A stretch of DNA of 64,000 nt from a phage: the sequence record PZ452596.1; one strand, 5' to 3'. Of this stretch, positions 6,665-40,980 are shown piece by piece. Each line of letters starts with the position of its first letter. The first letter of the stretch is position 1. The position numbers and the translations under genes were made by a program. The notes under the pieces were generated by a model that saw only the letters and a program-made list of their open reading frames with translations, made no database searches and had not been told where the DNA came from.

Positions 6665-7843
6665 TTAAAAGTATTTTTTAAAACTCATCATAACTTTATC
6701 ATCAACATCATTATCAATCTGTGCAACAAGATAAGATGACAGTTCTACTTCTTGTGGCGCGGATTGAACATTATCAGAATTAAGATATTCACGAATCCAA
6801 GGATATGGATGTTTAACCGGAGCATCGGTAATTGGGCATGGAAGACCGCACTGTTTCATACGAGATACAGTTAAGTAATCAATAAAGCTCCACATGCTAT
6901 TTGTATTTAATCCAGGAACATCGCCATCTTTAAATAAATGAACTGCCCAATCTTTTTCTTGGCGGTTAACTTCCATGAAAATATCAACTGCTTCTTGTTC
7001 ACACTCTTGAGCAATTTTAACCCATTGATCGCCATCAGTACCAGATTGAAGTTGACGAATAATATATTGGGTGCCTTTAAGGTGAAGCTGTTCATCGCGT
7101 GCAATGAACTTCATAATCTTGGCATTACCTTCCATGATTTCCATGTTCTTATGGAAGTTAAAGGTACATGCGAAAGATACATAAAAACGAATAGCTTCCA
7201 ATGCGTTGATTACATGCAAACAGAGGTAAAGAGATTTCATTAGCTCACGCTTCCAATATGTCTCATGCTCAATAGCATCTTCAATAACGTCTTCGTCTGC
7301 ATTAATTTCTTTTTGGTATTCGATATCAGCTTTAGCGTTTTCCCAATAACGAGTTTTAATCAGAACATCATCATAATAACGTCCAATGGATTCAGCACGT
7401 TTCATAATAGCTTCATCTAATACAATTTCATCAAATACCTTCGATGGATCAGTATAAAGATTTCGCATGATATGTGTATATGAACGGCTGTGAATAGTTT
7501 CACTAAAAGTCCATGTAGCAACCCATGTATCAAGGCTTGGGTCTGAAATTAATGACATAAGTACAGCAGACGGTGCACGTCCCTGAATGCTATCTAGAAG
7601 TGATTGATACTTCAAGTTATTAGTAAAAATATCTTGCTGATACTGAGGAAGCTTGTTAAATTGTGCAGCATCCATCATTAAGTTTACTTCTTCAGGCCGC
7701 CAGAAAAATGACAATTGCTTTTCGGTTAAATCTTCAAAAACTTTATGACGTTGAATATCATAACGCGCAATACCAAGACCTGAACCGAAGAACATAGGTT
7801 CTTTTAAAACATCAACTGGATTTGTATTAAAAACTGTGCTCAT
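6665..7843 (-). CDS. nrdB: ribonucleotide reductase small subunit
   Basis: 392 aa, uninterrupted (no group I intron, unlike T4 nrdB). Confidence 0.93.
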   Translation of the reverse strand: MSTVFNTNPVDVLKEPMFFGSGLGIARYDIQRHKVFEDLTEKQLSFFWRPEEVNLMMDAAQFNKLPQYQQDIFTNNLKYQSLLDSIQGRAPSAVLMSLISDPSLDTWVATWTFSETIHSRSYTHIMRNLYTDPSKVFDEIVLDEAIMKRAESIGRYYDDVLIKTRYWENAKADIEYQKEINADEDVIEDAIEHETYWKRELMKSLYLCLHVINALEAIRFYVSFACTFNFHKNMEIMEGNAKIMKFIARDEQLHLKGTQYIIRQLQSGTDGDQWVKIAQECEQEAVDIFMEVNRQEKDWAVHLFKDGDVPGLNTNSMWSFIDYLTVSRMKQCGLPCPITDAPVKHPYPWIREYLNSDNVQSAPQEVELSSYLVAQIDNDVDDKVMMSFKKYF

Positions 7844-7894
7844 AAATTTTCCACTTAGTTAATAGATAGTGACTCGTCCGTGAGTCAAATTATA

Positions 7895-10159
7895 TCATAA
7901 TTTACAGGATGAACAATCTTCAGCTTTTGGAGTTTCTATTTCATAATCATCAGTACCAGAACCATCACGGGTATTATGATAATAGAAATTTTTTCCGCCA
8001 AAATACCAAAAATACAAAAGGTCATCAATCATTATTGACATTGGAACCTTGCCTTTAGGGAAGATTTGGGGGTCATAATATGTATTCGCTGAAGCTGATT
8101 GACATACCCATTTCAGCATAATAGCTACCTGCGTAAGATAAGGTTTATTACCTTTCTTAGCTAATTTCCATGTATAATCATAGAGGTCTATGTTATGCTC
8201 AATATTGGGCACGACTTGATTAAAGGAGCCCTCTTTTGATTCTTTAACAGAGACTGGTCCACGTGGAGGCTCGATACCGTTTGTACTGTTAGAAACTTGG
8301 GAAGATGACTCACATGGCATAAGTGCTGATAATGTGCTATTACGGATGCCAAAGAGCTTAAGGTCTTCCCGCAGCGACGACCAGTCACAAACGTATTTTG
8401 GAGCTGCGATTTGGTCAATCTTTTTATTGTACCAGTCGATAGGTAATTCGCCTCGAGACCAACGAGTGTCTGAATAATATTCACAAGGTCCTTTTTCTTT
8501 GGCGAGCTTAATGGATGCTTTAATGAGTCCATACTGTAATCTCTCAAATAGTTCATGCGTTAAATCGTTAGCATCTTCATAAGAAGCAAAGTTACTTGCC
8601 AGCCAAGCTGCATAGTTAGTAACACCTACACCGAGGTTACGACGCTTTTTAGCTTTTTCTGCTTCAGGAACTGGATATCCTTGGTAATCCAAAAGATTAT
8701 CAAGAGCACGAACTTGGACTTCTGCCAATTCATTAATTTTATCTTGGTCTTGCCAGTCAAAATTATCTAGTACGAATGCAGATAACGTGCACAAGCCAAT
8801 TTCAGCATCAGGACTATTCACATCATTTGTTGGAATAGCAATTTCACAGCACAAGTTACTCTGACGAATAGGTGCCTTTTCACGAATAAACGGAGTATAG
8901 TTATTCGTATTATCAATGAACTGTACATAAATCCTTGCTGTTCCTGAACGTTCAGTCATGAGCAATTCAAATAGTTCACGGGCTTTAATACGCTTTTTAC
9001 GAATATTAGGGTCTTTTTCTGCTGCTTCATATAATTCACGGAAACGGTCTTGGTCTTTAAAATAAGAATAATAAAGCTCGCCACCCATTTCATGCGGACT
9101 GAACAAAGTAATGTAATCGTTCTTTCCGAATCGTTCCATCATCAAATCATTCAGTTGAACACCATAATCCATATGACGAATGCGGTTTTCTTCTACGCCT
9201 TTGTTATTTTTCAAAACGAGAAGATTTTCAACTTCCAAATGCCAAATAGGATAATAAGCAGTAGCAGCGCCGCCACGAATTCCACCCTGTGAACATGATT
9301 TAACTGCAGTCTGAAAATGTTTCCAAAAAGGAATAACACCAGTATGGCGTACTTCACCCATGCCAATCTTAGAACCTTCGGCACGAATCATACCAACGTT
9401 AATACCAATTCCAGCGCGTTTAGAGATATATTCTACAATCGAAGCGGAAGCCTTATTGATAGACTTTAATGAATCACCTGCCTCAATAACAACACATGAA
9501 CTAAACTGTCGAGTCGGAGTACGGCAACCAGCCATAATAGGAGTTGGCAATGAAATCTGTCGAGTAGATACTGCTTCATAAAAACGGATAACATGTTTTA
9601 ATCTATCAACAGGTTCATCTTGATGCAATGCCATTCCAATAGTCATAAATGCAAACTGCGGAGTTTCATAAATTTGACCAGTGGTTTTATCTTTAACTAG
9701 ATATTTTTCTTTTAATTGCATCGCTCCGGAATAAGTAAATTCCATATCCCTCTCGTGCTTAATTTTTGATTCTAAAAATGTAATTTCTTCTGCTGAATAT
9801 TTTGACAATAATTCAGGGTCGTATTTACCTTCATTTACGCAGTAAGAAATATGGTCAATAAATGAACGTGGTTCATATTGTCCGTAAACATGCTTACGAA
9901 GAGCAAACATTAAACAGCGTGCAGCTACGTATTGATAATCAGGCTCTTCAACTGAAATAGAATTCGCAGCAGCCTTAATTACAATGGTTTGAATGTCATC
10001 AGTGGTCATTCCATCACGGAGATATGATTTAATATTTTCATATAATTCATAAGGATCTACAGATGTTCCTTCAGCTGCCCAAGATAAAACTTTAATAATT
10101 TTTTGCGGGTCAAAGCTCTGAGAAACACCACTACTTTTGATAACATTAATTAATTGCAT
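7895..10159 (-). CDS. nrdA: ribonucleotide reductase large subunit
   Basis: 754 aa, same length as T4 NrdA. Confidence 0.95.
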   Translation of the reverse strand: MQLINVIKSSGVSQSFDPQKIIKVLSWAAEGTSVDPYELYENIKSYLRDGMTTDDIQTIVIKAAANSISVEEPDYQYVAARCLMFALRKHVYGQYEPRSFIDHISYCVNEGKYDPELLSKYSAEEITFLESKIKHERDMEFTYSGAMQLKEKYLVKDKTTGQIYETPQFAFMTIGMALHQDEPVDRLKHVIRFYEAVSTRQISLPTPIMAGCRTPTRQFSSCVVIEAGDSLKSINKASASIVEYISKRAGIGINVGMIRAEGSKIGMGEVRHTGVIPFWKHFQTAVKSCSQGGIRGGAATAYYPIWHLEVENLLVLKNNKGVEENRIRHMDYGVQLNDLMMERFGKNDYITLFSPHEMGGELYYSYFKDQDRFRELYEAAEKDPNIRKKRIKARELFELLMTERSGTARIYVQFIDNTNNYTPFIREKAPIRQSNLCCEIAIPTNDVNSPDAEIGLCTLSAFVLDNFDWQDQDKINELAEVQVRALDNLLDYQGYPVPEAEKAKKRRNLGVGVTNYAAWLASNFASYEDANDLTHELFERLQYGLIKASIKLAKEKGPCEYYSDTRWSRGELPIDWYNKKIDQIAAPKYVCDWSSLREDLKLFGIRNSTLSALMPCESSSQVSNSTNGIEPPRGPVSVKESKEGSFNQVVPNIEHNIDLYDYTWKLAKKGNKPYLTQVAIMLKWVCQSASANTYYDPQIFPKGKVPMSIMIDDLLYFWYFGGKNFYYHNTRDGSGTDDYEIETPKAEDCSSCKL

Positions 10160-10476
10160 AAGTCCTCAACTTGAAAATCGTCTTTAAACAATCGGTTAAC
10201 TATATGAGCTATTATATCACCATGACACGGCTTTGGTTTACATGTGCATCCTAGCCTCATTCCACGTAAAGGCTCTAAATGTGCTTTAGTTATTTCTCCG
10301 GATTTAATTCGACGTATAAAATCTTTTTTGAATAATTCAATGGCAGCCTCCCGGCTGCCAGCATCTTTACCGACGTAATTTCCCCAAAATGTACCGCGGT
10401 GAATATTAACATCAAAGTCGGATTTATATTTATTCACTACCTGGCATAGACGGCCCGCGCGGTGATAATTCGTCAT
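10150..10476 (-). CDS. hypothetical protein (nrdA.1 position)
   Basis: 108-aa ORF immediately downstream of nrdA. Confidence 0.55.
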
Positions 10477-10705
10477 ATTGTTTTTCCGTTAAAACAGTAA
10501 TATCATAGTAACAATCTGAAGAAGTTTTAACTGTAGAAATTTTATTATCAAAATACTCACGAGTCATTTTATGAGTATAATATTTTTTGCCATAAATGAT
10601 AATAGGCTGATTTGGTCCTGGAACTTCTAACTCGCTTGGATTAGGAAGTGTAAAAAGAACGACACCAGAAGTATCTTTAAATCGTAAAATCATATATCCT
10701 CGCAA
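10430..10705 (-). CDS. hypothetical protein (nrdA.2 position)
   Basis: 91-aa ORF; start uncertain, overlaps previous ORF. Confidence 0.45.
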
Positions 10706-10716
10706 TTAAATTAAAA

Positions 10717-11577
10717 TTATACCGCCATTTTTCCTTTCAAGACACCGTGGGACTGATAATCTTTGAGAACGAAATCTTTAGGCCTGAGTTTAAGAATGTA
10801 TTCCAATTGTTCTTTAGTAGAAAGATAGCGGAATTTATAAGGCAATCCGCCTATTACCAGTTCACAAAGCTCTTTAGGTTCACGACGTAAAATTTCTTTA
10901 CATTGTTCTACGTGATTCATATAGATATGAGTATTACCGCCAGAAAATATCAAATCTCCAGGAATAAGATTACACATCTTAGCTACAATATGAACTAACG
11001 CAGCATATGATGCAATATTAAATGGAAGGCCGAGAAAAACATCTACTGATCGTTGATACCACTGCAAATCTAAATAGCCATTACGCACATTAAACTGATA
11101 GAACACATGACAAGGCGGTAATGCCATATATTTAAGTTCAGCTGGATTCCACGCAGAAACAATTTGACGCCTATCATTTGGCAGTTTTTTAATACGATCA
11201 ACAACTTCTATAATTTGGTCTACACCGCCAAAATCACGCCACTGTTTTCCATAAATTGGACCAAGTTCACCGCTATGGTATCCTAAATCTTTTGCTTGAT
11301 TTTCGTAATTTTCATCCCAGACTGTTTTGCCTTGAATTAATGAATCATGTTGAATTAATCGTAAATCATTGACATTTGTGCTTCCTGATAAAAACCAAAG
11401 CAGCTCAGCAATGCAAGCTTTCCAGGCGAGCTTCTTAGTTGTTACCGCAGGAAAACCTTTAGTTAAATCCCAGCGCAATTTAGTACCGAACAAAGCAATT
11501 GTTCCTGTGCCTGTTCGGTCATCGGTTTCATAGCCATTTTCAAAAATGTCTTTAATTAAATCTTGGTATTGTTTCAT
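10717..11577 (-). CDS. td: thymidylate synthase
   Basis: 286 aa, ThyA active-site region ALPPCH; uninterrupted (no td intron or I-TevI). Confidence 0.95.
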   Translation of the reverse strand: MKQYQDLIKDIFENGYETDDRTGTGTIALFGTKLRWDLTKGFPAVTTKKLAWKACIAELLWFLSGSTNVNDLRLIQHDSLIQGKTVWDENYENQAKDLGYHSGELGPIYGKQWRDFGGVDQIIEVVDRIKKLPNDRRQIVSAWNPAELKYMALPPCHVFYQFNVRNGYLDLQWYQRSVDVFLGLPFNIASYAALVHIVAKMCNLIPGDLIFSGGNTHIYMNHVEQCKEILRREPKELCELVIGGLPYKFRYLSTKEQLEYILKLRPKDFVLKDYQSHGVLKGKMAV

Positions 11578-11622
11578 TTAGTACCTTATATAAATTATAA
11601 TACATTTTATGGAGCTAAATAA

Positions 11623-11982
11623 TCAATACGGTTTAGCATCAAATTTTCTTTCGATTTCAGGAGTGAAATATAATTCTTTACCGCGTTTAGAAAAGCGACC
11701 AATAATATGATAATTATTCTCATCAAACGTAATATTGCCAATATCCATGGCTTTCAACCAAATATCGATATTTCTATCCAGTTTTATATCAAAATTCCAA
11801 TACGGAGAACTATTACCGAAAATACTGCAAGCGGATTCAGTGAAACAACTACTATAAATCTTGTCTTTAGGAACTACTAATTGATAGACGCCTTTAATAA
11901 ACTGAGGACCCTGCCATTTTGGTTGTTTCGCGTCTTTTTCTAATAGAATAGGGTAATAATTAAAGTTCATATTTTCCGCCAC
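11623..11982 (-). CDS. hypothetical protein inserted between frd and td
   Basis: 119-aa ORF (MAENMNFNYYPILLEKD...) with its own spacing; no motif recognised. Confidence 0.5.
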   Translation of the reverse strand: MAENMNFNYYPILLEKDAKQPKWQGPQFIKGVYQLVVPKDKIYSSCFTESACSIFGNSSPYWNFDIKLDRNIDIWLKAMDIGNITFDENNYHIIGRFSKRGKELYFTPEIERKFDAKPY

Positions 11983-11990
11983 GCGTTATT

Positions 11991-12813
<823 letters not shown>

Positions 12814-12829
<16 letters not shown>

Positions 12830-13173
12830 TGAAAGGGGCCAGAAGCAAATCCGCTATCTTTAATCATTTTAACTAAAGTTACCATTCCTCTGTTAACTGC
12901 TTGTGAGATTTCATCAAAAACTTCATCACTATCACCATAAAGATCGCTAAAAAGTTCTAACACGTTCTTCTGAACTTTTAATTTACAGCCAACAAATTCG
13001 CCTACAGTAAATTCGTTTCCGCCAACTCCAGCGTAAAACGTAATTACACCAGTTAATGGTCTTTCACTAGAACATAGGTCGTGTGATAAATTAATATAAG
13101 CCGTCCCGGGTGCAGTTTTAAGTTGGCAACGAATACTTACTCGAGCAATTCCAGCTACACGAATGTCAGACAT
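12814..13173 (-). CDS. hypothetical protein (frd-32 cluster)
   Basis: 119-aa ORF. Confidence 0.5.
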
Positions 13174-13183
13174 ATTATTTTCC

Positions 13184-13426
13184 TCAAATAGACTTTTTCA
13201 CAATTTTCCAATCAGCTTTAAACTGCTCGACGTCAGAATGGTAAATCCAAAATCCTGCGCTTTCTCCATCCTCATAAAGAGGGCATCCATCACATTCATC
13301 TTCCCACCCCATATCGCGTAAAAGGTGTTCAGCTTTTTCAACAAGTTCAGAATCTTTACCGATGATATTAAAATACCATTTACCTCTAACTTCTGAATCT
13401 TTGATACTCTGACGTTGTAATCTCAT
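13184..13426 (-). CDS. hypothetical protein (frd-32 cluster)
   Basis: 80-aa ORF with CDGC motif. Confidence 0.5.
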   Translation of the reverse strand: MRLQRQSIKDSEVRGKWYFNIIGKDSELVEKAEHLLRDMGWEDECDGCPLYEDGESAGFWIYHSDVEQFKADWKIVKKSI

Positions 13427-13514
13427 TTTATTCTCCTTAGCAAGCTTTAATCAAAAGATATAAACAGACCAACATAACTGCTGCCATAATATAAGGTGCG
13501 AACATTTTCTTTTC

Positions 13515-13570
13515 TCCATTAGTTTTGATAGGGTAATAGTATCACACTACTACCCTGTTGTAAACAATTA
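13515..13570 (-). promoter_or_regulatory. early promoter candidate
   Basis: minus strand TGTTTAC followed by -10-like element; member of dispersed repeat family. Confidence 0.4.
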
Positions 13571-13861
13571 TTTTTGAATTTTATCGAGCCACTTACCAAG
13601 CTTAATCATTTCTTTAGTAGCCTTTTCCATACTTCTGAACTTAACCAATAGAGGATAGGTATCGACACCCATAACTAAACTGGTTACAAGACTGTGTTCA
13701 CCCACAAGCCATAATGAATACGTTTGAATATCGAGCCCGTAATTTCTGTCTTTATGGACCCGTACACCCATCACTTCAAATTTCTCACTAGCTTTTTCTA
13801 CCGCATCCAGGAAATCATCTTTAGTCATATTAGGCCTTAAAAGTTTTTCGCAAAAGTTCAA
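13568..13861 (-). CDS. hypothetical protein (frd-32 cluster)
   Basis: 97-aa ORF. Confidence 0.5.
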   Translation of the reverse strand: MNFCEKLLRPNMTKDDFLDAVEKASEKFEVMGVRVHKDRNYGLDIQTYSLWLVGEHSLVTSLVMGVDTYPLLVKFRSMEKATKEMIKLGKWLDKIQK

Positions 13862-14649: not shown

Positions 14650-15558
14650 TTAAAGGTCATTCAAAAGGTCATCCAGGTCCGTGTCATCAGCACTAGATGA
14701 ACTGCCAGAGCTTGAGCTCATAAAATCATCTTCAGTTTTTGTATTGAAGTCATCAACATTGAATGCATCCAAATCATCAGCAACTTTATCAGCTTTCTTA
14801 GCAGCAGTTGCAGCGGCACCGCCCATCACAGCAGTTCCCATAACTTGACCGAATTTAGTATTCAGTTCTTCAAACGATTTGAATTTATCTTTAGAAGTCA
14901 TTTCAGAAAGGTCAACCATTTGTTCGAACAGTTCTTTCTGGAAAGATTCATCATCAATGTTTGGAATCGCAGATTGATTCAGGAATTTAGATTCATCGTA
15001 GTTACTAAATCCAGAAACTTGTTTAACTTTCAGTACAAAGTTAGCACCTTCCCACGGACAAGTTACATCAACCGGAGTTTCACCCATTTCGACATCAACT
15101 GCAATCATCGCGTTGATTTTATCCCAGATTTTCTTACCGAAACGGTATTTAAATACTTTACCTTCGTTTTCTGGAGCAGCTGGGTCTTTTACTACAAGAA
15201 TGTTAGCCCAGTAAGAAGTTTTGCGTTTAATAAGACTGTACTCTTTATTGTCAGTGTTGTATAGATCATTTTTACTAATGTACTGACATACTGGACAAGA
15301 ATCGTAATCACCGTGGGTAGATGAGCAATTTTCGATATACCATTTACCGTTTTTCTTGAAACCGTGATTTACAAGAATTGCGAATGGTGCTTGTTCATCA
15401 TTTTTAGACGGAAGAAAACGAATTACTGCTTGACCGTTACCCGCATTATCGAGTTTCAGTTTCCACTCGCCTTTATCTTCAGAAGAAAAACCACCTTTAT
15501 TTCCAGCCAGTTTAGCCATTTGTGCAGCGAGTTCAGCAGTAGATTTACGTTTAAACAT
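14650..15558 (-). CDS. 32: single-stranded DNA-binding protein gp32
   Basis: 302 aa, acidic Ser/Asp-rich C-terminal tail; matches T4 gp32. Confidence 0.95.
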
Positions 15559-15640
15559 TTTTATTTCCTTTTTAATTTAATTAACAGTTGGTGCTATGAC
15601 GATGTATGACCTCATAGCTGGTCAGTGAGATAATTATAAT
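15559..15640 (-). promoter_or_regulatory. gene 32 leader / autoregulatory translational operator region
   Basis: AU-rich unstructured leader UUAAAUUAAAAAGGAAAUAAAA before AUG; operator role known from T4. Confidence 0.5.
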
Positions 15641-15641
15641 C

Positions 15642-15649
15642 TATTTATA
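15642..15649 (-). promoter_or_regulatory. late promoter core TATAAATA upstream of gene 32
   Basis: exact TATAAATA on minus strand. Confidence 0.4.
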
Positions 15650-15657
15650 ATAAGCAA

Positions 15658-16311
15658 TTAATACTTGCAGGATTTCACAGTTTCAATGAAAACACTTTTA
15701 GCTTTCTGTGAATCAATATTTAAAATTTTTCTATAAGCTTTTAACTTTATAGAAAAATTATTCCAAACTAAATTATCAGTCTGTTCATCATGTTTATCAA
15801 TTATATTTAAAAACGAATCAAGTAAGATAAACGTCTCAAACGAAATTATATTCGATTGAAGCAGTTTAAAAATATAACTTGACTGAACTTTTGGATTATA
15901 TTCAAAGATTTCTTTAAAAGCAGAAACTTCAACTTTCTTACTAAAATAATAAATGTTGCGAATATCTTCTTCAAACTTAAATTTAATTTGCTTTAAGCGT
16001 CCGATATATTCACGATAAAACACAAGTGCATCAGCGTCAGAGATGTCACCAATCCAAGCATCTTGGTTAGCAACAAGATTGCTTATAAAGATTAAAGCAA
16101 GTTCCTTTAATTTATATTTTTCTGATAACTTCTGGAAAAAATACTTATCCCTTCGCTTTTGATAAGCGGCATCAGACACCCGCATGCACCAATTATACTT
16201 AATTACATCATACTTTCCATTCATATGCTGTTTTATCATTAAGTATAATTTATAAACTGATTTACCATCAATGTATCTTTCACCACCAGCAGGCATGCGG
16301 AGTTTAATCAT
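15658..16311 (-). CDS. 59: helicase loader gp59
   Basis: 217 aa, same length and position as T4 gp59. Confidence 0.9.
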   Translation of the reverse strand: MIKLRMPAGGERYIDGKSVYKLYLMIKQHMNGKYDVIKYNWCMRVSDAAYQKRRDKYFFQKLSEKYKLKELALIFISNLVANQDAWIGDISDADALVFYREYIGRLKQIKFKFEEDIRNIYYFSKKVEVSAFKEIFEYNPKVQSSYIFKLLQSNIISFETFILLDSFLNIIDKHDEQTDNLVWNNFSIKLKAYRKILNIDSQKAKSVFIETVKSCKY

Positions 16312-16646
16312 AGCAGAAAATCTAATGTATTAGTTTTTTCACAACGAACAACAGAAGGACGTAAAAGATTTTCGTCAATGGCTTCTGACTGAATTTTTTC
16401 AATTATACCCGAAGGAATAAATTTAGCAAATTGAGTTTCAGGAATAGAATTTTCTTCTAAGAATGCTGTTGTAGCTTCAAGATAACTCATTCCAAACTCT
16501 TCTACCATTTTTTCAATAATAAATCCATTTTCTTGACGATCAAGAAGCTTTGCGATTTCATCTTTTTCCTTTTTAAGGGAAAGTTCTTTTTCTGAAAGCC
16601 CGGCCTCATCGACCGGGCGAATATCATTTAGAGAAAACTGTGTCAT
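16308..16646 (-). CDS. 33: late transcription co-activator gp33
   Basis: 112 aa from MTQFSLNDIRP...; position 59-33-dsbA. Confidence 0.85.
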   Translation of the reverse strand: MTQFSLNDIRPVDEAGLSEKELSLKKEKDEIAKLLDRQENGFIIEKMVEEFGMSYLEATTAFLEENSIPETQFAKFIPSGIIEKIQSEAIDENLLRPSVVRCEKTNTLDFLL

Positions 16647-23644: not shown

Positions 23645-26600
23645 ATGGCTACTTTAAAACAAATACAATTTAAAAGAAGCAAAACTGCAGGAGCACGTCC
23701 TGCCGCTTCAGTATTAGCCGAAGGTGAATTGGCTATAAACTTAAAAGACCGTGTACTTTTTACTAAAGATGACCAAGGAAATATCATTGATCTTGGTTTT
23801 GCTAAGGGCGGTAGTATTGACGGGAATGTTATTCATATAGGAAACTATAATCAAACTGGTGATTATACTTTAAATGGCGTCTTCACTCAGACTGGTAATT
23901 TTAATTTAACTGGTATTGCTCGAGTAACTCGCGATATTATTGCTGCTGGGCAGATTATGACTGAAGGCGGAGAACTTATTACAAAAAGTTCAGGTACAGC
24001 GCATGTTCGTTTTTTCGATGGCAATAGTCGCGAACGTGGAATCATTTATGCCCCGGCTAATGATGGTTTAACTACACAAGTACTTAATATCAGGGTTCAA
24101 GACTACGCCGCTGGTAGCGAAAGCACTTATGCATTTTCAGGCAGTGGCCTATTTACTTCACCTGAAGTATCAGCATGGAAATCTATTTCGTCTCCACAAA
24201 TTCTGACCGACAAAGTTATTACAAACGGGAAGAAGGCAGGAGATTATGATATCTATTCATTAGCAAATAACACCCCATTATCTGAAAGCACTACTGCTAT
24301 TAATCATCTTCGTGTCATGCGTAATGCCGTTGGTTCTGGTATTTTCCATGAAGTTAAAGATAATGATGGGATAACCTGGTATGCCGGTGACGGGTTGGAG
24401 GCTTATCTTTGGTCGTTTACGTGGTCCGGTGGGTTGAAAGCGGGTCATTCTATTTCTATAGGTACCCCAGGCGGTCCAAAAGGATATTCTGAATTAGGAA
24501 CGGCCTCAATTGTTCTTGGGGATAATGATACCGGATTTAAATGGCATCAGGACGGATATTATTTCAGCGTCAATAATGGAACAAAAACGTTTTTATTTAG
24601 TCCCAGAGAAACAACTAGCCTAAGAAAATTTGTAGCTGGATATTCTACTAACGGAACCGATTTAACTACTCCTCCAACTGAAAATTATGCTCTTGCTACT
24701 GTAGTAACATACCACGATAATAACGCGTTTGGAGATGGTCAGACTCTTTTAGGATATTATCAAGGCGGTAACTATCATCATTATTTCCGCGGCAAGGGTA
24801 CTACAAACATTAATACTCATGGCGGTTTGTTAGTTACTCCAGGTAATATTGATGTTATTGGCGGTTCTGTTAATATTGATGGTATAAATAATTCTTCTAC
24901 CCTGCTATTTAGAGGCAACACAACTGGTAGTAGTTCAGTTGATAATATGACAATTTCCGTTTGGGGCAATACGTTTACTAATCCTAGTGTAGGTAATCGT
25001 AAAAACGTCATGGAAATTTCTGATGCAACTAGTTGGATGAGCTATATTCAAAGACTTACAACAGGTGAAGTAGAAATGAACGTTAACGGTTCATTTGAAT
25101 CATCTGGTGTTACTGCTGGAAATAGAGGAGTTCACACAACAGGCGAAATTTCATCTGGAGCAGTGAATGCGCTTCGCATTTGGAACGCAGATTATGGAGC
25201 TATTTTTAGACGTTCAGAAGGTAGTCTTCATATTATTCCAACTGCTTACGGTGAAGGTAAACACGGCGATATCGGTCCACTTCGCCCGTTTAGTATGGCT
25301 TTAGATACTGGTAAAGTTACTATTCCAGATTTACAATCAAGTTACAATACGTTCGCTGCTAACGGTTATATTAAATTTGTTGGTCATGGAGCGGGTGCCG
25401 GCGGTTATGACATTCAATATGTTCAAGCGGCTCCTATTTTCCAGGAAATCGATGATGATGCTGTAAGCAAATATTATCCTATTGTTAAACAGAAGTTTTT
25501 AAACGGTAAATCCGTTTGGTCTTTAGGTACTGAAATTAATTCAGGTACATTTGTTTTACATCATTTAAAAGAAGACGGAACTCAAGGACATACGTCTCGT
25601 TTTAATCAAGACGGTACTGTTAACTTCCCAGATAACGTTCAGGTCGGCGGCGGTGAAGCTACTATTGCTCGCAATGGTAATATCTTCTCCGATATTTGGA
25701 AACCGTTTACTTCTGCAGGTGATACTACAAATATTCGCGATGCTATTGCGACTCGTGTTTCGAAAGAAGGCGACACGATGACCGGTAAGTTGATTATTAG
25801 AAGAGATTCTGACGCTATTAACTTAGCTGCGCCTTCGACAACTGATGCAAGTTACCTTCTTTCTACAGGCGCTGGTGAAAATCTATGGTATATTGGTAAA
25901 GGCGGCGCTGATAATACTGTATCATTTTACAACTATAAAACCAATGGGGCTGTGCAAATTAACTCTATTGGTGAAATCGCGCTGATTCCACAAGGTGCTG
26001 CAACATTTAACTTCAACCGTGATCGTCTCTATATAAATGGGTCTCAATGGACTGCACATCAAGCTGGTGACTGGGTTAACCAATGGCGTCAAGAAGCTCC
26101 TATATTTGTGGATTTTGGTAGTGTCGGCAATGACTGCTATTATCCTATTATTAAAGGAAAATCTGTTATTACGAATGAAGGATACGTATCTGGTGTTGAT
26201 TTCGGTATGCGCCGTATCACTAACCAATGGGCTCAGGCTATTATCCGTGTTGGTAACCAGGAAAATGCTAGCGATCCGCAAGCTATCTTCGAATTCCACC
26301 ATAATGGAAACATGTACGTTCCTGACATGGTTAAAGCTGGAGTAAGATTATCAGCTGGTGGAGGTGACCCTGTATGGACAGGCGCATGTGTTGTTATTGG
26401 TGATAATGACACTGGGTTAGTTCATGGCGGTGACGGTCGTATTAACATGGTTGCAAATGGAGTGCATATTGCTTCATGGTCGTCCGCTTACCATCTCCAT
26501 GAAGGTCTTTGGGATACCACCGGTGCTTTGTGGACTGAACACGGAAGAGCTATTATTTCTTTTGGTCATTTAGTTCAAGAAAGTGATGCCTATTCCACAT

Positions 26601-26959
26601 TTGTCCGCGATGTTTATGTCCGTTCTGATATTCGTGTTAAAAAAGACCTTGTTAAATTTGAAAATGCTTCTGAGAAGCTTTCTAAAATTAACGGTTACAC
26701 TTATATGCAGAAGCGAGGCCTAGATGAAGAAGGCAATCAGAAATGGGAACCTAACGCCGGTTTGATAGCTCAAGAAGTTCAAGCTATTTTGCCTGAATTA
26801 GTTGAAGGTGACCCTGATGGCGAAGCTTTACTTCGTTTGAACTATAACGGTGTAATTGGTTTAAATACAGCTGCAATCAATGAGCATACTGCAGAAATTG
26901 CGGAACTTAAATCAGAAATTGAAGAACTTAAAGCATTAGTTAAATCATTGTTAAAATAA
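23645..26959 (+). CDS. 37: long tail fibre distal subunit gp37 with C-terminal intramolecular chaperone domain
   Basis: 1104 aa; C-terminal ~120 aa ([10 protein letters not shown]...[15 protein letters not shown]...coiled coil) resembles auto-cleaving chaperone domains of phage fibres. Confidence 0.9.
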
Positions 26960-26990
26960 TAAGAGGGGCTTCGGCCCCTTGGAGGTTTAT

Positions 26991-27767
26991 ATGGCAGTAA
27001 CAGGACCGTGGGTAGGATCGTCTGCAGTAGTTAATACAGGACAAAATTGGATGTCCAGCGCGGCCCAACGATTAAGAATGGGTACTCCATTTTGGATGAG
27101 TAATATGATAGGTCGATCTGTTGAAGTAATTCATACACTTGGAGCAGATCATAACTTCAATGGTCAATGGTTCCGAGATAGATGTTTTGAGGCAGGTAGT
27201 GCACCTATAGTGTTTAATATCACTGGAGATTTAGTATCATATTCTAAAGATGTTCCTTTATTCTTCATGTATGGAGATACACCGAATGAATATGTTCAGT
27301 TGAATATACACGGCGTAACGATGTATGGACGTGGCGGTAATGGCGGTAGCAATAGTCCTGGTTCAGCTGGAGGTCATTGTATTCAAAACGATATTGGTGG
27401 GAGACTAAGAATTAATAATGGTGGAGCTATTGCTGGAGGTGGCGGCGGTGGCGGCGGCGGATATTATTCTCCTTTTTCACAAATGAGATTGACTTTTGGA
27501 GGTGGCGGCGGGCGTCCGTTTGGCGCACCGGGCGGATCTATTGATATGCAATCAGGAGCAACTGCTGGTACTATTTCTGCGCCTGGCGCAGGGTCTGTGA
27601 ACGGTATCTATAGCGGCGGTGGCGGTGGCGAAGTTGGCTCCGCAGGAGGTAGATGTAATATTCGTGGTCAAGGATCTGAATACGATGGCGGAGCTGCTGG
27701 TTATGCCGTCATAGGGTCTACACCGACATGGCAAAACGTTGGAGCAATATATGGTCCAAGAGTATAA
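26991..27767 (+). CDS. 38: tail fibre tip adhesin gp38 (T2-type, glycine-rich)
   Basis: start at MAVTGPW with SD GGAGG; poly-Gly tracts (GGGGGGGGG, GGGGG) separating variable segments. Confidence 0.85.
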
Positions 27768-27797
27768 TTTGAATAAATATCCTTAAAAGGAGGGTCT

Positions 27798-33626: not shown

Positions 33627-33684
33627 ATTAATTTCCTCTAAATTATTTTCTACTCCAAGGCCGCATGAATACGCGGCCATTAAA

Positions 33685-33900: not shown

Positions 33901-34015
33901 AATTCACCTCAAGGAGTATAAAATCCAAATGCAGTTGTTGACCATCCCATCCAATACGGGAAATTTGCGCCAATGTAAAACATGAGAATATAAAACCAAC
34001 CACTCAGCAAATTCA

Positions 34016-34234: not shown

Positions 34235-34334
34235 AATAAGCGTTTAATACATCAATCATTAAAACGATTGGGAATATACTCAAAACTATTAGTATTATAA
34301 CTACATTCCATATAGCTTTAACAATCTTTTTCAT
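34221..34334 (-). CDS. small membrane protein (ndd-denB cluster)
   Basis: 37 aa from MKKIVKAIWNVVIILIVLSIFPIV...; early promoter just upstream. Confidence 0.35.
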   Translation of the reverse strand: MKKIVKAIWNVVIILIVLSIFPIVLMIDVLNAYFGFM

Positions 34335-34344
34335 TTTCTGTTCC

Positions 34345-34405
34345 TCCGTAGTTGATAGGGTAATAATACCACAGAGGAACAGTCTTGTAAACAACTTTTT
34401 AAAAA
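34345..34405 (-). promoter_or_regulatory. T4-type early promoter (repeat family copy)
   Basis: minus strand GTTTACAAGACTGTTCC... ; variant -10. Confidence 0.45.
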
Positions 34406-34608
34406 TATTCGTAATAAATGTGAATACCAATCACCACTGCCGAAACTTGTGCAACCCACCACGCACAAGCAATAAGTACAGAATTAAAAATTTTCATAAT
34501 AACCTCATCACAAAAGTAAATGTTAAACAAATTAATGGAATACTAATTAACCAAACAAAACACCACCATAATGAACTCATAGTTCAATCTCAACGATTTT
34601 CATTTTAC

Positions 34609-34827
34609 TCAATAATCCGCTAAAAGATCGACGATTGCATCACGAAGACACTTATTCGCAATACGTTTAAGAGCAATTTCAGTTTCTGGAGCATTTTGAA
34701 TAATCATTGAATTCAATTCAGCCTCAGCAAACTGAAGTTCTTTAACTAATTCAGCTTTATATTTTCCTTGCCCTTTCTTAGCTTTTGCTCGTTTTAATTC
34801 AGCTGTAGTAAACATTTTATTCTCCAA
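34609..34827 (-). CDS. hypothetical protein (ndd-denB cluster)
   Basis: 72-aa ORF preceded by early-promoter repeat. Confidence 0.45.
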   Translation of the reverse strand: MENKMFTTAELKRAKAKKGQGKYKAELVKELQFAEAELNSMIIQNAPETEIALKRIANKCLRDAIVDLLADY

Positions 34828-34831
34828 ATCC

Positions 34832-34895
34832 GTATCAGTTGATAGTTGTATATTACCACAGTCCTTGTGGTATGTAAACAGTTTTGTGAAAAAAT
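34832..34895 (-). promoter_or_regulatory. T4-type early promoter (repeat family copy)
   Basis: minus strand CTGTTTACATACCACAAGG...GGTAATATACAACTATCAAC. Confidence 0.45.
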
Positions 34896-34899
34896 TTTT

Positions 34900-35457
34900 T
34901 TAAATGGAAAGATACCATCCATTGTAGTTGCTTTTTCTTACAACCTTACGAAGGTCTTCTCTATCACCGATGAATTTCGGAGTGTACTGGATGACACCTG
35001 GATGAATTTCTTTAGTGTTGAATATAATTATACAGTCAGCGACTTGGTGATTCAGAATGGGCCCTAGATTTATTCCAGAACCGTATGGATACTCTCCGCT
35101 GCATCCGGTTGTTACCGAAATCCATCGTGAGTCAGTTTGATGTGTTTTGACTTCTACACGAAGCCCACAGTATTTTGGATGCGCCAATACATCCCATGCA
35201 TATGTATATGGGTCATTAACATCCTCTTGGCCTTTGTTAACATACCCGCTTAGCCAATCTGCTACAAAAAATTCTGCGTACACAGCGATACGGCATCTTT
35301 CGATAACTTCTGCCTTATCCTGATTTGGGTTTTGTTTTAAAGAGTATCTTGCAGTATCAGCAATTTTGACCTTCATTTCATTGGTTAAATCGCTGTTCGA
35401 TAGAGTAAATGTCGGAATCTGAAATAGTCTCTGTAGCCCCGGATTCGTTTTCTGCAT
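34900..35457 (-). CDS. denB: endonuclease IV (dC-specific)
   Basis: 185 aa, same length and position as T4 DenB. Confidence 0.88.
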   Translation of the reverse strand: MQKTNPGLQRLFQIPTFTLSNSDLTNEMKVKIADTARYSLKQNPNQDKAEVIERCRIAVYAEFFVADWLSGYVNKGQEDVNDPYTYAWDVLAHPKYCGLRVEVKTHQTDSRWISVTTGCSGEYPYGSGINLGPILNHQVADCIIIFNTKEIHPGVIQYTPKFIGDREDLRKVVRKSNYNGWYLSI

Positions 35458-35525
35458 TTAAACTTTCCTTTATGTCGGAATCACTGATATTCATATAATA
35501 AATCATAATTTCTCTTAAAACAAAA

Positions 35526-35537
35526 GGGCCGAAGCCC
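35526..35537 (-). other. UUCG-tetraloop hairpin immediately 3' of stop codon
   Basis: minus strand GGGC-UUCG-GCCC directly after TAA of the 64-aa ORF; identical copy at 35752. Confidence 0.5.
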
Positions 35538-35540
35538 TTA

Positions 35541-35735
35541 TTATTTGAATTGTGCAATTCTTTTCTCTAGACATTCAGCATAAGATTTCATTGAAATGAA
35601 CTGTGAAAGCAGCAGTTCTTGCTCAACTGCACTAACCGTTAGAAACTTTGCGCTTTCTAAAAATTTACTAAGCGCATTAATTTTGAGCATTAATTGATCG
35701 TATTCTTCTTTTACTCGTGCTTGATAACCTAACAT
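35541..35735 (-). CDS. hypothetical small protein between rIIB and denB
   Basis: 64-aa ORF flanked by two identical UUCG-loop hairpins. Confidence 0.45.
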   Translation of the reverse strand: MLGYQARVKEEYDQLMLKINALSKFLESAKFLTVSAVEQELLLSQFISMKSYAECLEKRIAQFK

Positions 35736-35751
35736 AATTTTCCTTAGTTAA

Positions 35752-35763
35752 GGGCCGAAGCCC
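35752..35763 (-). other. UUCG-tetraloop hairpin immediately 3' of rIIB stop codon
   Basis: identical 19-nt element TAAGGGCUUCGGCCCUU as at 35526. Confidence 0.5.
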
Positions 35764-36702
35764 TTATTTAAATTGTTCAGTAACGTCTTCAACTACTTCG
35801 TATTGGCAGGTACGCATTTTAGCGTCGTTGTAATCAATCGGAATTGATACTACATCGCGAGGATGTACTTTAACTTTTACAACTCGGCTGGTTGAACTGC
35901 CAAAGTGACGAATATAAGATTTAGAACACACATGCAGACCGCGAGAACAAGTTTGTGTATCATCGTCATTCACACGAGTACGTGGCATTTTAACTACTTT
36001 ACCCGGACTGTTATCAAATGTGTTTGAGTGACAGTCAAAGTAATTGCTGCGAACTACTTTCCAAGCATAGAAGTAACCATCTTCTGTAATTTCAATATCG
36101 TTTGCTACCAAGAAATCAAAGAGTCGAGATACCGCTTTTTGGCTTGGGTTTTCCAGCAGATTTTCCAAGAACGGAAAATAAAATTCAAAGTTTTCGCCTT
36201 TTTCCATCGAGTCAAGAATACGATCAACTAAACCGGACCGCAATTCGATATTTTGATAGAACAAGCTTCCACCTTCAATTCGAACATCGCCGGAAATATA
36301 TTTTTCAACAGCGCGACGAACATTAATTTTTTGCACAGCTTCTTCCAGCTTATCCGCTACAAGCAGATTAAGAATTTCCTGGAAGTTTGAATGAGTATTA
36401 GGAGTTGCGTTATAAGTTACGCCATCAACAGTAATTGAAATGAATTTTTTAGATGCATTCCAAATAATGTCAGATTTAGCAACTGGAGCAATAACTGCAT
36501 CGCTATTAACTTTAACTGTAATATCACCGCTAATAGTAACTTTAGGGTGTTTAGCTTCTTCAGCATTTTTCAAAACACGACGGATTGTGTCAACCGATAC
36601 ACCTTGCCAATCAGCCAATTCCTGTTGGGTGTAATTACCACTTGAATACAGTTTAACAATTTCAGCTTGTTCATTTTTGGTCAGGCATTTAATATTGTAC
36701 AT
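35764..36702 (-). CDS. rIIB: rIIB protein
   Basis: 312 aa, matches T4 rIIB. Confidence 0.95.
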   Translation of the reverse strand: MYNIKCLTKNEQAEIVKLYSSGNYTQQELADWQGVSVDTIRRVLKNAEEAKHPKVTISGDITVKVNSDAVIAPVAKSDIIWNASKKFISITVDGVTYNATPNTHSNFQEILNLLVADKLEEAVQKINVRRAVEKYISGDVRIEGGSLFYQNIELRSGLVDRILDSMEKGENFEFYFPFLENLLENPSQKAVSRLFDFLVANDIEITEDGYFYAWKVVRSNYFDCHSNTFDNSPGKVVKMPRTRVNDDDTQTCSRGLHVCSKSYIRHFGSSTSRVVKVKVHPRDVVSIPIDYNDAKMRTCQYEVVEDVTEQFK

Positions 36703-36713
36703 AATTTTCCTTA

Positions 36714-38891
36714 TTAGGCCGCAAGGGCCTTCATAGTTTTAGCGATTTGGGAAACTTCATCATCACTTAAAGAGTTGCGATAACCGATGAAGTCGGAAAC
36801 AATACGGAATTTCTTGGTAAACTCAGCAACCATTTTATCACTGTTTTTTGAAGCATTATTTGATAATACATCAAAAAGATTAGTTACTGTCCAGATGTCA
36901 TGACCGATAGTATCTTTTCCACCATTAAAATATACACCCTGTAATGAACTAACCATATTAGCGAGTCGTGTATATTCTTCAGAAACTTCATCTACACTGA
37001 AGTACTTCATCATAAAATCTAGCTCAGGATACTTGATAATTTTATCAATATATCGTTTAGCTGAACTTGAATAACCTACATACTTATCATAATCTACATC
37101 ATCAAAAGCATCTACATATAAATCACGCAAAGCTTCAAAAATACATTGGCACTGACCGAGTTCTTTTACCTTTTTCTGTAAAAGCGGACGAATAACATAA
37201 AATTCATTAATGCCAATAAGATTAGCCATACGAATCAAAATATTCATAGATGGATGACAAAGAGATGTAGTACCATCCATAGAAAAAATATCAGAACGAT
37301 GCATATACGCTACATAACCAGTAATTTCATCTGCTTCTGACGTGAGCGTAAATAATTCCTCTTTTTCCCAGCGCCCGTCTTTAATTTCAAACTTAAATGC
37401 TGTAGCAGCTTTAGGACGAGGAGCTTTACTTTTAACTACCTTTGGAATATAGCTTTTAACTAAAGCTTCAATTTCTGACAAATAATGAATGTTAACTTCA
37501 TCACTTTCAAACATTGCCATAATATCAGGAAGCAAATCAATCTGCGATTCTACTTCTGGGTTAATAAACAGAAGACGCTCATTGTGATGAATATTCAAAG
37601 TGTTATTAAATTCACTATCATCTAACGCACGTGCTAATCCACGAACAATATTAACACGATTTTTAATATTATCAATAACGATATTAATTTTTGTTGTATT
37701 AATACCAAACAGACGATAACTTGATGCAACGGCTGAAGTTTCATGGCTTTGCTTAATACGTTTCAGCCGAGGGTCAAGATTTACTTCATACACAACCCCT
37801 GCATTACATAACTTACTATCAGGTTCAAACATGCTCTGCATCTTCTTATATGACAGATTTTTAGTCGTGAATTTGACTGAATTACTAATCATATAATCTC
37901 GAGCAGAATACCCCATCTTCATTAATTCGCGATATGTATGACGAGGAGATGTAGATTCTTTAAATCGTTTTACATCTTCATTAAATGCTTTCTCACTGAG
38001 TTCTTTAACTCGTTCAATAATATTTTTACGAGTACGATCATCCAGTGAAAGAGCCTCACGAGATGGAGCAATATCAAGTGAACCCATTGGGAACTTAATG
38101 TAATTCACTTCATTGCGAATGCTTAGCCAGTTACGGTCTCTAATAACACCATCGATAGGATAAACAATACCGCCATAGATAGCATATAATCCACCGCGAT
38201 CAGGCCAGTATCTTTCTGGATTTACGCCATAATAATCATCAAAATCCGGAAAATAATCAATTTCGCGGTCAAGACCATTAATGATAGCCAAATCTTTGAA
38301 CGGTCGCATGATATAAGAAACTTCATAAGCAAAGTTTCTAAAGTCTTTTTCTTCAACTGGAACTACGATTTCAATACCAGTTTTATCATCTGGACCCATT
38401 TCTTTTACGAATGTAGGTTTAATCTGTGGGCCATCACCATCCATATAAGCTACATAACCACGAATTTCACCTTTATGATACGAAGTAATACTAAACGTAT
38501 CAGTATAACTAAACGGAGATTTAGAACCTAAACCAAATCCGCCAATGAAATCGTTAGATTCAGCCTTAGATGAACTGAAGTATGAATTATACAGACCAGG
38601 AGAATTATCATCACCCTGAATATCAAAATCACTCATACCTGGACCAAAATCTCGGCAAACAAATCGTGGATCTAAACGTCCAGGAACTTGAATGATAAAT
38701 TTTTCAGGATTTCCATTGAGAGCATGGGCATCAATCATGTTGGTAATCAATTCACGGACTACTGCGCGAATTTTGTTTGTATACAAATCAGATGACAGAA
38801 TTTTAAATACTTTAGGAGATGCTGTGATGCTAAATGCTTTTGATTTAGAACCATTACCAAGAATTGTTTCTTTTTCAGTGGTGATAATCAT
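36714..38891 (-). CDS. rIIA: rIIA protein
   Basis: 725 aa, N-terminal GHKL-like ATPase region; matches T4 rIIA. Confidence 0.95.
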
Positions 38892-38901
38892 AATTTCCTC
38901 A

Positions 38902-39105
38902 TTAATTCATATTACGCTTAATAACTTCAGCAACTTCTAGTAGTTCATCTTTAGTTGCGGTGTCGGATTGAATTTTATCTCTAATATCTTTAAAGCGGTT
39001 TTTAAATTCTTCGGCTTCTCCCATATCGAAAAAGCGTTGAATGATTCTATATTCTCGATAAACTGCTTTATCAAAAAGTTCTAAATTTACTCTATATGAT
39101 TTCAT
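38902..39105 (-). CDS. hypothetical protein (rIIA.1 position)
   Basis: 67-aa ORF. Confidence 0.5.
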
Positions 39106-39124
39106 TTCAATATCCTCATTTGCC

Positions 39125-39165
39125 CAATTAATTATACCACATCCTTGTGGTAAAGTAAACTACTG
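39125..39165 (-). promoter_or_regulatory. early promoter upstream of rIIA.1/rIIA
   Basis: minus strand GTTTAC -16- GGTATAAT. Confidence 0.5.
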
Positions 39166-40980
39166 GCTCATCCATTCTTTACGAAGGTCAGCATTATCTC
39201 CCATGAGCATTTCAAAAAGCTCTTTCCAGTTCTCAGGAAGTTTAACAACATCATATACTGGATTTTGAATCATCTCACGATATTCAGATTTTTCCAAAGA
39301 GCCAAGTCCCTTAATATAACGGATACTATGTTTAGGTAGAGCATCTTTAGCACTCTCATATTCAGCGACTGTATAAAACCATTCTTGTTTTTTACCGACC
39401 TGAGCGATGATTACAGGAGTTTTGACAAAGCGAATTCGTCCTTGCTCAAACAATTCTGGCCAATTACTAAAAAATCCGAGCAGAGAAGGATAAATGCTTC
39501 CTAAACCATCATGGTCAGCATCAGTCATAATAGCAATATTATGATAATTCAAGTTTTCAGCTTTTTCACCTAGAACTAAACCCGTGATTGCGCAAATATC
39601 AAACAGTTCTTTGTTTTTAAGCATATCAGCATATGACATACCCCAACTGTTGAGAACTTTACCACGCAATGGATAACCACCATGAAGTTCTTTATCACGA
39701 ACATCAATAAGATATCCGATAGCAGAATCACCCTCAGTCAAGAAAAGAGTAGTGTCAGCATCTTTACCACAAAGATTCGCTTTAATATGTTTATGAACCT
39801 TAGCTTTAGAAGCCTTTTTAGCTGCTTTAGTTTCTGCTGCTTTTTCTGCTGCCAATTTACGAGCTAATGCTGCTTCAATAATTGGCATCAAAATTGCTTC
39901 ATTATTTAGAATAGCGCGTGAAATCTTTTTAGCATCAAGTTGAATATGACTACGGATTTCACCAAATGGAGAAGTCAAACGCTCTTTAGTTTGAGAATCA
40001 AATCGCATGTTTTTCATATCACGAACAAACATAACGATAGTCAAACATTCTTTGACACGTGCTTTAGTTACATCAATTTTGAACTTACGTTTGATTTGTG
40101 GAATAAGGTCTTCACAAATATCATCCATAACACAGTCAATGTGATGGCCACCATTCTTAGTGTGAATGTTATTCACATAAGTTAATTGACGAAATCCATC
40201 CGGTGAACGACCAACCGCAATAGAACAATTTTCTTGTTCTTGAACAATAGCATGTTCATCATACTGTCGTGCATATTTCTTAAAATTGCCCTGAACCTTT
40301 TTACCATTAAAGGTAAATTGAATATCAGGATAAACAACAGCAAGTGTCTGGAGACGATCCAGTGTAATGTCAAGATAAACTTGGGACAGCTCATTAGTTT
40401 CAAATGACATAAAATCAGGAATGAAAGTAACACGAGTTCCTTTCCATTTTCCAGGAATATCTTCCCATGATTTATTTTCCATGCCATTTGAACAACGAAC
40501 TACAATATTATTTTGACCATCACCAGTTTCACCGACAAACATCACAGAAAAAATGTTTGTCAAACTAGAACCAACACCATTCATACCACCGGTGACGCGT
40601 TCTTTATCATCACCGAAGTTACCACCTGCTTTTGGAATAGTCCACGCAGCAACAGGACCAGGAATTTCTTCACCTGTAGGTGTTTTAACCATCGCCTGTG
40701 GAATACCGCGACCGTTATCTTCAACTGTTACCTGATTATTTTTAATAGTAACATTAATTTTATTTGCGAATTTAAACTTAGTACGAATACCTTCATCTAC
40801 TGAGTTATCAATAATTTCATCAATAAGCTTAACAAGACCAGGTACATACTGAACACTTTCCCATTTACCAAACAGAAAGCGCTCATGCATTTCATTAGCA
40901 GAAGAGCCAATATACATGCCGCTACGCTTTTTGATATGTTCAATATCGCTCAGAATTTTAATTTCATTCTTAATCATCAC
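39160..40980 (-). CDS. 39: DNA topoisomerase II large (ATPase) subunit, unsplit gene 39
   Basis: 606-aa GyrB-like ORF in one frame; in T4 this protein is split into genes 39 and 60. Confidence 0.9.
   Translation of the reverse strand: MMIKNEIKILSDIEHIKKRSGMYIGSSANEMHERFLFGKWESVQYVPGLVKLIDEIIDNSVDEGIRTKFKFANKINVTIKNNQVTVEDNGRGIPQAMVKTPTGEEIPGPVAAWTIPKAGGNFGDDKERVTGGMNGVGSSLTNIFSVMFVGETGDGQNNIVVRCSNGMENKSWEDIPGKWKGTRVTFIPDFMSFETNELSQVYLDITLDRLQTLAVVYPDIQFTFNGKKVQGNFKKYARQYDEHAIVQEQENCSIAVGRSPDGFRQLTYVNNIHTKNGGHHIDCVMDDICEDLIPQIKRKFKIDVTKARVKECLTIVMFVRDMKNMRFDSQTKERLTSPFGEIRSHIQLDAKKISRAILNNEAILMPIIEAALARKLAAEKAAETKAAKKASKAKVHKHIKANLCGKDADTTLFLTEGDSAIGYLIDVRDKELHGGYPLRGKVLNSWGMSYADMLKNKELFDICAITGLVLGEKAENLNYHNIAIMTDADHDGLGSIYPSLLGFFSNWPELFEQGRIRFVKTPVIIAQVGKKQEWFYTVAEYESAKDALPKHSIRYIKGLGSLEKSEYREMIQNPVYDVVKLPENWKELFEMLMGDNADLRKEWMSQ

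Follow-up and report, generated by a model that had tools for sequence, protein, structure and literature searches.

The T-even phages differ in the number of homing endonuclease genes that they carry. T4 has 15 and T6 has 11, T2 has one, and several relatives have none (PMC2993671). The targets of some of these enzymes have been described. I-TevI cleaves 23/25 nucleotides (nt) upstream of the place where the intron is inserted in td (PMC2988022), the nicks made by MobE have been mapped to nt 122-126 of T2 nrdB (PMC2790892), and SegF excludes gene 56 of T2 (PMC2330249). T2 is already the standard recipient of such elements (PMC2988022, PMC2330249). The sequence considered here, a window of 64,000 nt (the whole stretch of record PZ452596.1), comes from a T4 relative, Enterobacteria phage RB27 (Tequatrovirus RB27). 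Its genes td, nrdB and 39, together with several spacers between genes, are very probably unoccupied homing sites, and RB27 could plausibly receive the T4 elements there.

T4 insertions and the RB27 window

The window was compared with the corresponding arcs of T4 (NC_000866), T2 (AP018813) and T6 (AP018814) and their annotation, by chaining colinear blastn matches. Aligned DNA has a mean nucleotide identity of 94.3% to T4 (54.9 kilobases (kb) aligned), 94.9% to T2 and 94.2% to T6. T4 has the same gene order as RB27. At seven sites in the arc, T4 has selfish insertions that are missing from RB27, with clean colinear flanks. They are listed here by window position, together with dam; lengths are in base pairs (bp).

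Between 7167 and 7168: nrdB intron with truncated I-TevIII, 598 bp extra in T4
7844-7898: nrdB.1 and mobE, 645 bp net extra in T4
Between 11028 and 11029: td intron with I-TevI, 1017 bp extra in T4
15622-15656: segG, 588 bp net extra in T4
39509-39559: gene 60 bypass gap, 60.1 and mobA, 1053 bp net extra in T4
52521-52550: segF, 629 bp net extra in T4
53088-53129: dam, 879 bp net extra in T4
59334-60279: segA and the T4-type b-gt, 1941 bp in T4 against 946 bp in RB27, which has a different glucosyltransferase

Both the absence of these elements and the conservation of their sites are direct observations. A preliminary description of the window had named four places where T4 elements are missing: td, nrdB, gene 39 and the junction of soc and gene 56. 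All four are real. The whole-window alignment puts a T4 insertion at each of them, and thus T4 does not itself lack these insertions. The list was incomplete, since the absences of mobE, segG and segA had been left out.

The same description called this genome T2/T6-like at every such site. For T2 this is nearly right. Of the seven sites only soc/56 is an exception, and T2 matches RB27 at the other six, namely td, nrdB, gene 39 and the spacers nrdA/nrdB, 32/59 and uvsX/glucosyltransferase. Likewise, T2 lacks mobE, segG and segA and has the same glucosyltransferase after uvsX, and its genes 32, 39 and uvsX are 97-99% identical to those of RB27. Several small RB27 open reading frames (ORFs), such as that at 1481-2011, are absent from T2. 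For T6 the statement does not hold. T6 shares with RB27 an intronless nrdB, an unsplit gene 39, the lack of segF, segG and segA in the arc and the lack of dam between 56 and 61, but it has a td intron with I-TevI, a mobE-type HNH gene and about 360 bp between soc and 56. RB27 is a mosaic that resembles T2 at soc and over the 5' part of nrdB and resembles T6 in having no dam, and its gene 56 is unique among the four phages.

The source of the window can be stated with precision. Megablast of positions 6000-30000 finds RB27 (KM607000.1 / NC_025448.1) at 100% over 24 kb, and a position-by-position comparison with NC_025448, joined end to start, finds 63,999 of the 64,000 positions identical. The two records correspond as follows.

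Window 1-36713: record 128467-165179
Window 36714-64000: record 1-27287

The sole base difference is at window 40828, which is C where both NC_025448 and KM607000 have T. The change is synonymous (Lys50 of gene 39, AAG in the window and AAA in the records), and with the C the sequence gains an AAGCTT (HindIII) site.

RB27 is one of Rosina Berry's sewage isolates of 1964, and its genome, assembled at 2,966x coverage, was published in 2015 (PMC4293622). Assembly or annotation could in principle produce false absences, for instance if introns had been collapsed or trimmed, but this has next to no probability here. Nothing beyond the single base that separates the window from the deposited records speaks for it. 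The ORFs are intact and colinear with those of the independently sequenced T2, the coverage is that given above, and hundreds of other genomes have the same junctions. In addition, an independent sequence of the RB27 nrd region (AY262128.2) was among those that Wilson and Edgell aligned in their 2009 study of mobE, grouped into sequences with and without mobE (PMC2790892).

The individual sites

The two genes of this arc that are interrupted by introns in T4 are continuous in RB27.

10717-11577, minus strand: td, continuous ORF of 286 amino acids (aa)
Between 11028 and 11029, minus strand: empty td-intron (I-TevI) site, between coding nt 550 and 549
6665-7843, minus strand: nrdB, continuous ORF of 392 aa
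Between 7167 and 7168, minus strand: empty nrdB-intron (I-TevIII) site, between coding nt 677 and 676
nrdB coding nt 90-160, minus strand: MobE nick region, T2-type
7844-7894, minus strand: nrdB-nrdA spacer, 51 bp, empty mobE site

Both reading frames had been reported as unbroken at these lengths, and the ORF list and the annotation agree on this. The T4 introns, 1017 bp in td and 598 bp in nrdB, each align to a gap of zero length. The global aligner used here has a very cheap gap extension and gives spurious small blocks in the diverged nrdB and td; only the large intron gaps were used. An interruption of td of the group I intron type is not found in RB27, where the exon junction is intact within a single ORF. 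Around the nrdB intron site, RB27, T2, spliced T4 and T6 have nearly the same sequence over 76 nt. T2 resembles RB27 at both genes, with an intronless td of 286 aa and an intronless nrdB of 392 aa that has the T2-type 5' haplotype common to the two phages. Upstream of the td site, RB27 has the CAACG (CNNNG) cleavage motif at the same position as T4, T2 and T6.

The td gene of T6 is different. It contains an intron of 1016 bp (15363-16378 of the fetched arc) that is 99.8% identical to the td intron of T4, and its I-TevI ORF is 100% identical at the protein level. The td exons of T6 and T4 differ more than the introns, and a 100-nt stretch of T6 exon 2 is highly diverged. Near-identical introns amid diverged exons fit a recent lateral transfer of the intron. 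Next to td, the T4 gene overlaps frd, and RB27, T2 and T6 have an ORF of 115 aa between td and frd.

The spacer between nrdB and nrdA is likewise empty in RB27. In place of window 7844-7898, T4 has 700 bp with nrdB.1 and mobE, and T6 has 641 bp with an HNH ORF of 213 aa; T2 is colinear with RB27. T6 thus carries a mobE-type gene between nrdA and nrdB, and RB27 has none there. In T6 (arc 11585-12226) this is one ORF of 213 aa, against two in T4 (arc 11717-12417), mobE of 141 aa and then nrdB.1 of 83 aa. Over the first 30 residues shown, the two mobE proteins do not differ. One and the same chance tblastn match is obtained with T4 nrdB.1 and with the C-terminal part of the T6 ORF, offset by 130 residues, which suggests that mobE and nrdB.1 of T4 are a split version of one gene.

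Within nrdB itself, the region nicked by MobE is of the T2 type. RB27 is identical to T2 at nt 122-126 and differs from it at two of the 71 nt between nt 90 and 160, namely nt 129 and 147. In T4 and T6, which carry mobE, this part of nrdB is strongly diverged from that of T2 and RB27.

Two further spacers are short in RB27 and hold endonuclease genes in T4.

15559-15657, minus strand: empty segG site in the 99-bp spacer between genes 32 and 59
59346-59422, minus strand: empty segA site in the 77-bp spacer between uvsX and the glucosyltransferase gene

In place of window 15622-15656, T4 has 623 bp with segG, and T2 and T6 are colinear with RB27. At the second spacer, segA lies between uvsX and b-gt in T4, and in RB27, T2 and T6 uvsX is directly followed by the gene for another glucosyltransferase, of 280 aa. 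The glucosyltransferase gene of RB27 (59423-60265) is of the T2/T6 type, not the beta-glucosyltransferase of T4. It is annotated as beta-glucosyl-HMC-alpha-glucosyltransferase and matches the Pfam family TAGT (E-value (E) = 1e-9).

A further T4 insertion lies in the gene for the large subunit of topoisomerase II. In T4 it is split into genes 39 and 60, with a gap of 50 nt after the GGA take-off codon and with mobA. No such split is found in RB27.

39160-40977, minus strand: gene 39 (topoisomerase II large subunit), 605 aa from the annotated ATG at 40977
Between 39504 and 39505, minus strand: position equivalent to the 50-nt bypass of T4

The alignment confirms that T4 divides the gene into 39 and 60 with a translational bypass and that RB27 has a single ORF, as had been proposed. 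The length given for it, 606 aa, is that of a mechanical ORF (39160-40980, minus strand) starting at a GTG. A length of 605 aa is likely instead, since the protein begun at the annotated ATG aligns with T4 gp39 residue 1 to residue 1. The RB27 protein corresponds to residues 1-473 of T4 gp39 (98.5% identical), followed by residues 27-160 of gp60 (95.5%). The 51 bp at window 39509-39559 take the place of 1104 bp in T4 that comprise the bypass gap, the N-terminus of gp60, 60.1, mobA and the C-terminus of gp39. At the bypass position RB27 reads GAT GGT TTA GGA without a break and T2 reads GAT GGT CTA GGA, whereas T4 has GAT GGA, 50 untranslated nt, and TTA GGT. The gene 39 product of T2 is also unsplit, 605 aa long, and 99.8% identical to the RB27 protein.

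The last site lies between soc and gene 56.

52225-52482, minus strand: soc
52551-53069, minus strand: gene 56, separated from soc by a spacer of 68 bp

The description of soc as abutting gene 56 with no segF between them is correct as to segF, with a gap of 68 bp; the site, at 52225-53069, falls outside the range 6665-40980 to which the absences had been assigned. The spacer holds the late-promoter-like box TATAAATA and an AAGGAG ribosome-binding site ahead of soc, and is therefore ordinary regulatory DNA. As well as being an empty segF site, it lacks two small ORFs (soc.1 and soc.2 by position) that are present in T2 and T6. T2 has 351 bp with these two ORFs and T6 about 360 bp, so that RB27 is unlike both of them there. 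The direct junction of soc and 56 and the RB27-like allele of gene 56 are instead found in a group that includes RB32, RB33, RB51, RB68 and Ac3, which matches window 52400-53140 in one uninterrupted piece at 97-98% identity. RB32 and RB51 have four homing endonuclease genes each by the published count (PMC2993671), against none found in RB27.

Gene 56, which encodes a dCTPase/dUTPase, has three alleles (of the T4, T2/T6 and RB27 types) that are mutually about 75% identical at the nucleotide level, within a backbone that is 95-97% identical. This hypervariable gene adjoins the point at which segF is inserted, and in T2 it is the gene that SegF targets. On its other side, the interval between 56 and 61 (window 53070-53337) has no dam in RB27 and contains only a plus-strand ORF of 66 aa (53141-53341, noted as dam.1 in the record). 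T4 has dam in this interval, T2 has dam and an ORF of 546 bp (1417 bp in all), and the T6 record is without dam.

Genome-wide search and prevalence of the empty state

The search for homing endonucleases was extended to nearly the whole RB27 genome. All 15 T4 homing endonuclease proteins were compared by tblastn with 164,713 of its 165,179 bp (99.7%). No homologue was found in the 164,713 bp searched, the best match having E = 0.014 over 29 residues. The T6 arc, as a positive control, gave I-TevI at E = 2e-167 and mob-type matches down to 4e-147. In the same run the T2 arc had no match to the 15 proteins.

Profile hidden Markov models (HMMs) of the GIY-YIG domains (seg, I-Tev) and the HNH domains (mob) were also run, with filters off, on all ORFs read from stop to stop. 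These models recovered every T4 and T6 member (E <= 1e-15), including the mobA relic that had been left out of model building. In this search the best RB27 ORF was denA (E = 0.89), which scores similarly (E 0.65-0.89) in T4, T2 and T6. At the positions where T4 has mobB, mobC, mobD, segB, segC, segD and segE, RB27 has no such gene, and nrdD, which lies outside the window, is one ORF of 605 aa.

The empty condition is not peculiar to RB27. Short queries across each empty junction were searched against the phage records in the database, and a match was called contiguous if no insertion longer than about 600 bp interrupted it. Each count is set against the total of records that had any match to the query.

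td: 379 of 557 contiguous, 68%
nrdB intron site: 599 of 712 contiguous, 84%
Gene 39: 465 of 509 contiguous, 91%
32/59 junction: 357 of 498 contiguous, 72%
nrdB/nrdA junction: 408 of 556 contiguous, 73%

At every site scored, the majority of records (68-91%) have the RB27-like empty condition. The count of soc/56 records at 80% coverage or more was not used for prevalence, as pieces up to 870 bp apart are joined in it. The empty state is thus common among T4 relatives and T4 is the exception, which is already known; reviews call T4 an outlier. Since RB27 is a published genome in a state regarded as normal for T-even phages, the finding itself is already known.

One can ask if the sites were always empty. 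An ancestor of RB27 may have carried some of the elements, which then disappeared through precise deletion or through gene conversion with an empty relative as donor. Cycles of endonuclease gain, decay and loss are the accepted model (PMC2988022). T4 itself has decayed copies, in that its I-TevIII is truncated, its mobA is a relic and its mobE is separated from nrdB.1, and the backbone of the T-even phages is mosaic. Such a secondary loss is nevertheless unlikely in RB27. No remnants were found, every junction is clean, and the spacers consist of short stretches of regulatory DNA. Polymorphisms flanking td pair RB27 with the intronless T2 and T4 with T6, a pattern that fits co-conversion upon gain of the intron in T4 and T6 at least as well. 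The empty state is, moreover, the majority state at every site.

RB27 also has a number of small ORFs that are absent from T4, at the following window positions.

1481-2011
3316-3618
11623-11970
12572-13173
13568-13828
34609-34815
41312-41683
42513-43308
46029-46289
54535-54891
61808-62059

As candidates for novel endonucleases these ORFs were rejected. Scans of the RB27 ORFs absent from T4 with Pfam and PHROGs found no nuclease domain, only families of unknown function, a motB paralogue and an AdfA-like domain. The AdfA-like match belongs to the ORF at 54535-54891 (118 aa), which adjoins the homologue of 61.2. Its match, with E = 2e-8, is to the C-terminal half of the Pfam family AdfA (anti-DarT factor A), and it may have arisen by duplication of part of the gene next to it. 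The others belong to PHROGs of unknown function, to DUF7247 or to the motB paralogue, and several of them are also present in T2 and/or T6.

Two other regions of the genome differ from T4 in sequence or in annotation. At window 23800-27770, gene 37 (distal tail fibre) and gene 38 include 2-4 kb with no alignment to T4, T2 or T6. Gene 38 (26991-27767), annotated as a host-specificity tail-fibre protein, encodes 259 aa against 183 aa in T4. This divergence is the usual mosaicism of tail fibres. Gene 49 (endonuclease VII), outside the window at 42471-42943 of the RB27 record, is annotated as two adjacent coding sequences, 49' and 49, and in T4 it is one gene with an internal start. The pair in RB27 may reflect a frameshift or a choice of annotation.

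RB27 as a possible recipient of T4 elements

At its empty sites RB27 encodes only ordinary genes. Thus, td and nrdB need no splicing, and the large subunit of the topoisomerase is a single polypeptide whose synthesis involves no ribosomal bypass. In cells infected with both RB27 and T4, the T4 endonucleases would be expected, by analogy with crosses of T4 and T2, to cut or nick the RB27 alleles. For instance, the cut by I-TevI would fall 23/25 nt upstream of the td insertion site, and the nick by MobE close to nt 122-126 of nrdB. With T4 as the template, recombinational repair would then bring the element, along with the markers that flank it, into RB27. The susceptibility of the RB27 alleles to cleavage is something we infer, and a role for RB27 as a homing recipient, like that of T2, is plausible.

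Several points weigh against such a role or against the completeness of the absence. Compared with the intronless junction of T4, td of RB27 has 7 differences in the 45 nt that surround the insertion site, and compared with T2 it has 2 differences over 81 nt. Identity between gene 56 of RB27 and the T2 allele, which is cleaved by SegF, is only 75%, and with alleles so different, cleavage of the RB27 allele by SegF cannot be assumed. Endonuclease families unrelated to those of T4, such as hef-like and AP2-HNH enzymes, were screened by Pfam and PHROGs on a subset of the ORFs only. Finally, with gathering thresholds Rfam gave no family for the window, but it equally gave none for the T2 loci or for the intron-bearing loci of T4 and T6 and so has no power; a null at these thresholds cannot exclude ORF-bearing phage introns. 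Because these positive controls were missed, the Rfam result was discarded and the DNA alignment was used in its place.

Another model would make some RB27 alleles escape variants, with targets that have diverged, so that RB27 would be immune and a poor recipient at those sites. At td, RB27 has two changes relative to T2 beside the insertion site, as this model would have it, but the CAACG motif is intact, and I-TevI tolerates many substitutions in its target. At gene 56, the three alleles of about 75% identity within a backbone of 95-97% identity could likewise be read as escape, yet the T4 and T2 alleles are equally divergent and T2 is cut. Where MobE nicks, at the 5' end of nrdB, phages that have mobE (T4, T6) are strongly diverged from those that lack it (T2, RB27), but RB27 has the sensitive T2 haplotype and is identical to it at nick positions 122-126 (PMC2790892). 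Genes 32, 39 and uvsX remain 97-99% identical to those of T2. Escape is therefore very unlikely as an account of these sites, and unoccupied homing sites that T4 elements could enter remain the preferred reading.

A broader claim can also be made, though it is quite unlikely to hold in full. RB27 may have no homing endonuclease gene or intron of any kind, being without all 15 endonucleases and all 3 introns of T4. In that case it would offer a cleaner recipient than T2, across the whole genome, for the mapping of homing and marker exclusion. The third allele of gene 56 might record a diversification of the target driven by a SegF-type enzyme rather than neutral mosaicism.

For practical purposes, RB27 could join T2 as a recipient in homing crosses. 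The exact coordinates of its empty sites are now given, and its targets in nrdB, 32, 39 and uvsX are T2-like, that in gene 56 being the one that is not. Beyond this the result is little more than bookkeeping. A likely misconception is corrected, in that T6 is not free of elements at these sites. The window is that of a typical T4 relative without homing endonucleases, and it is T4, not RB27, that has the unusual genome.

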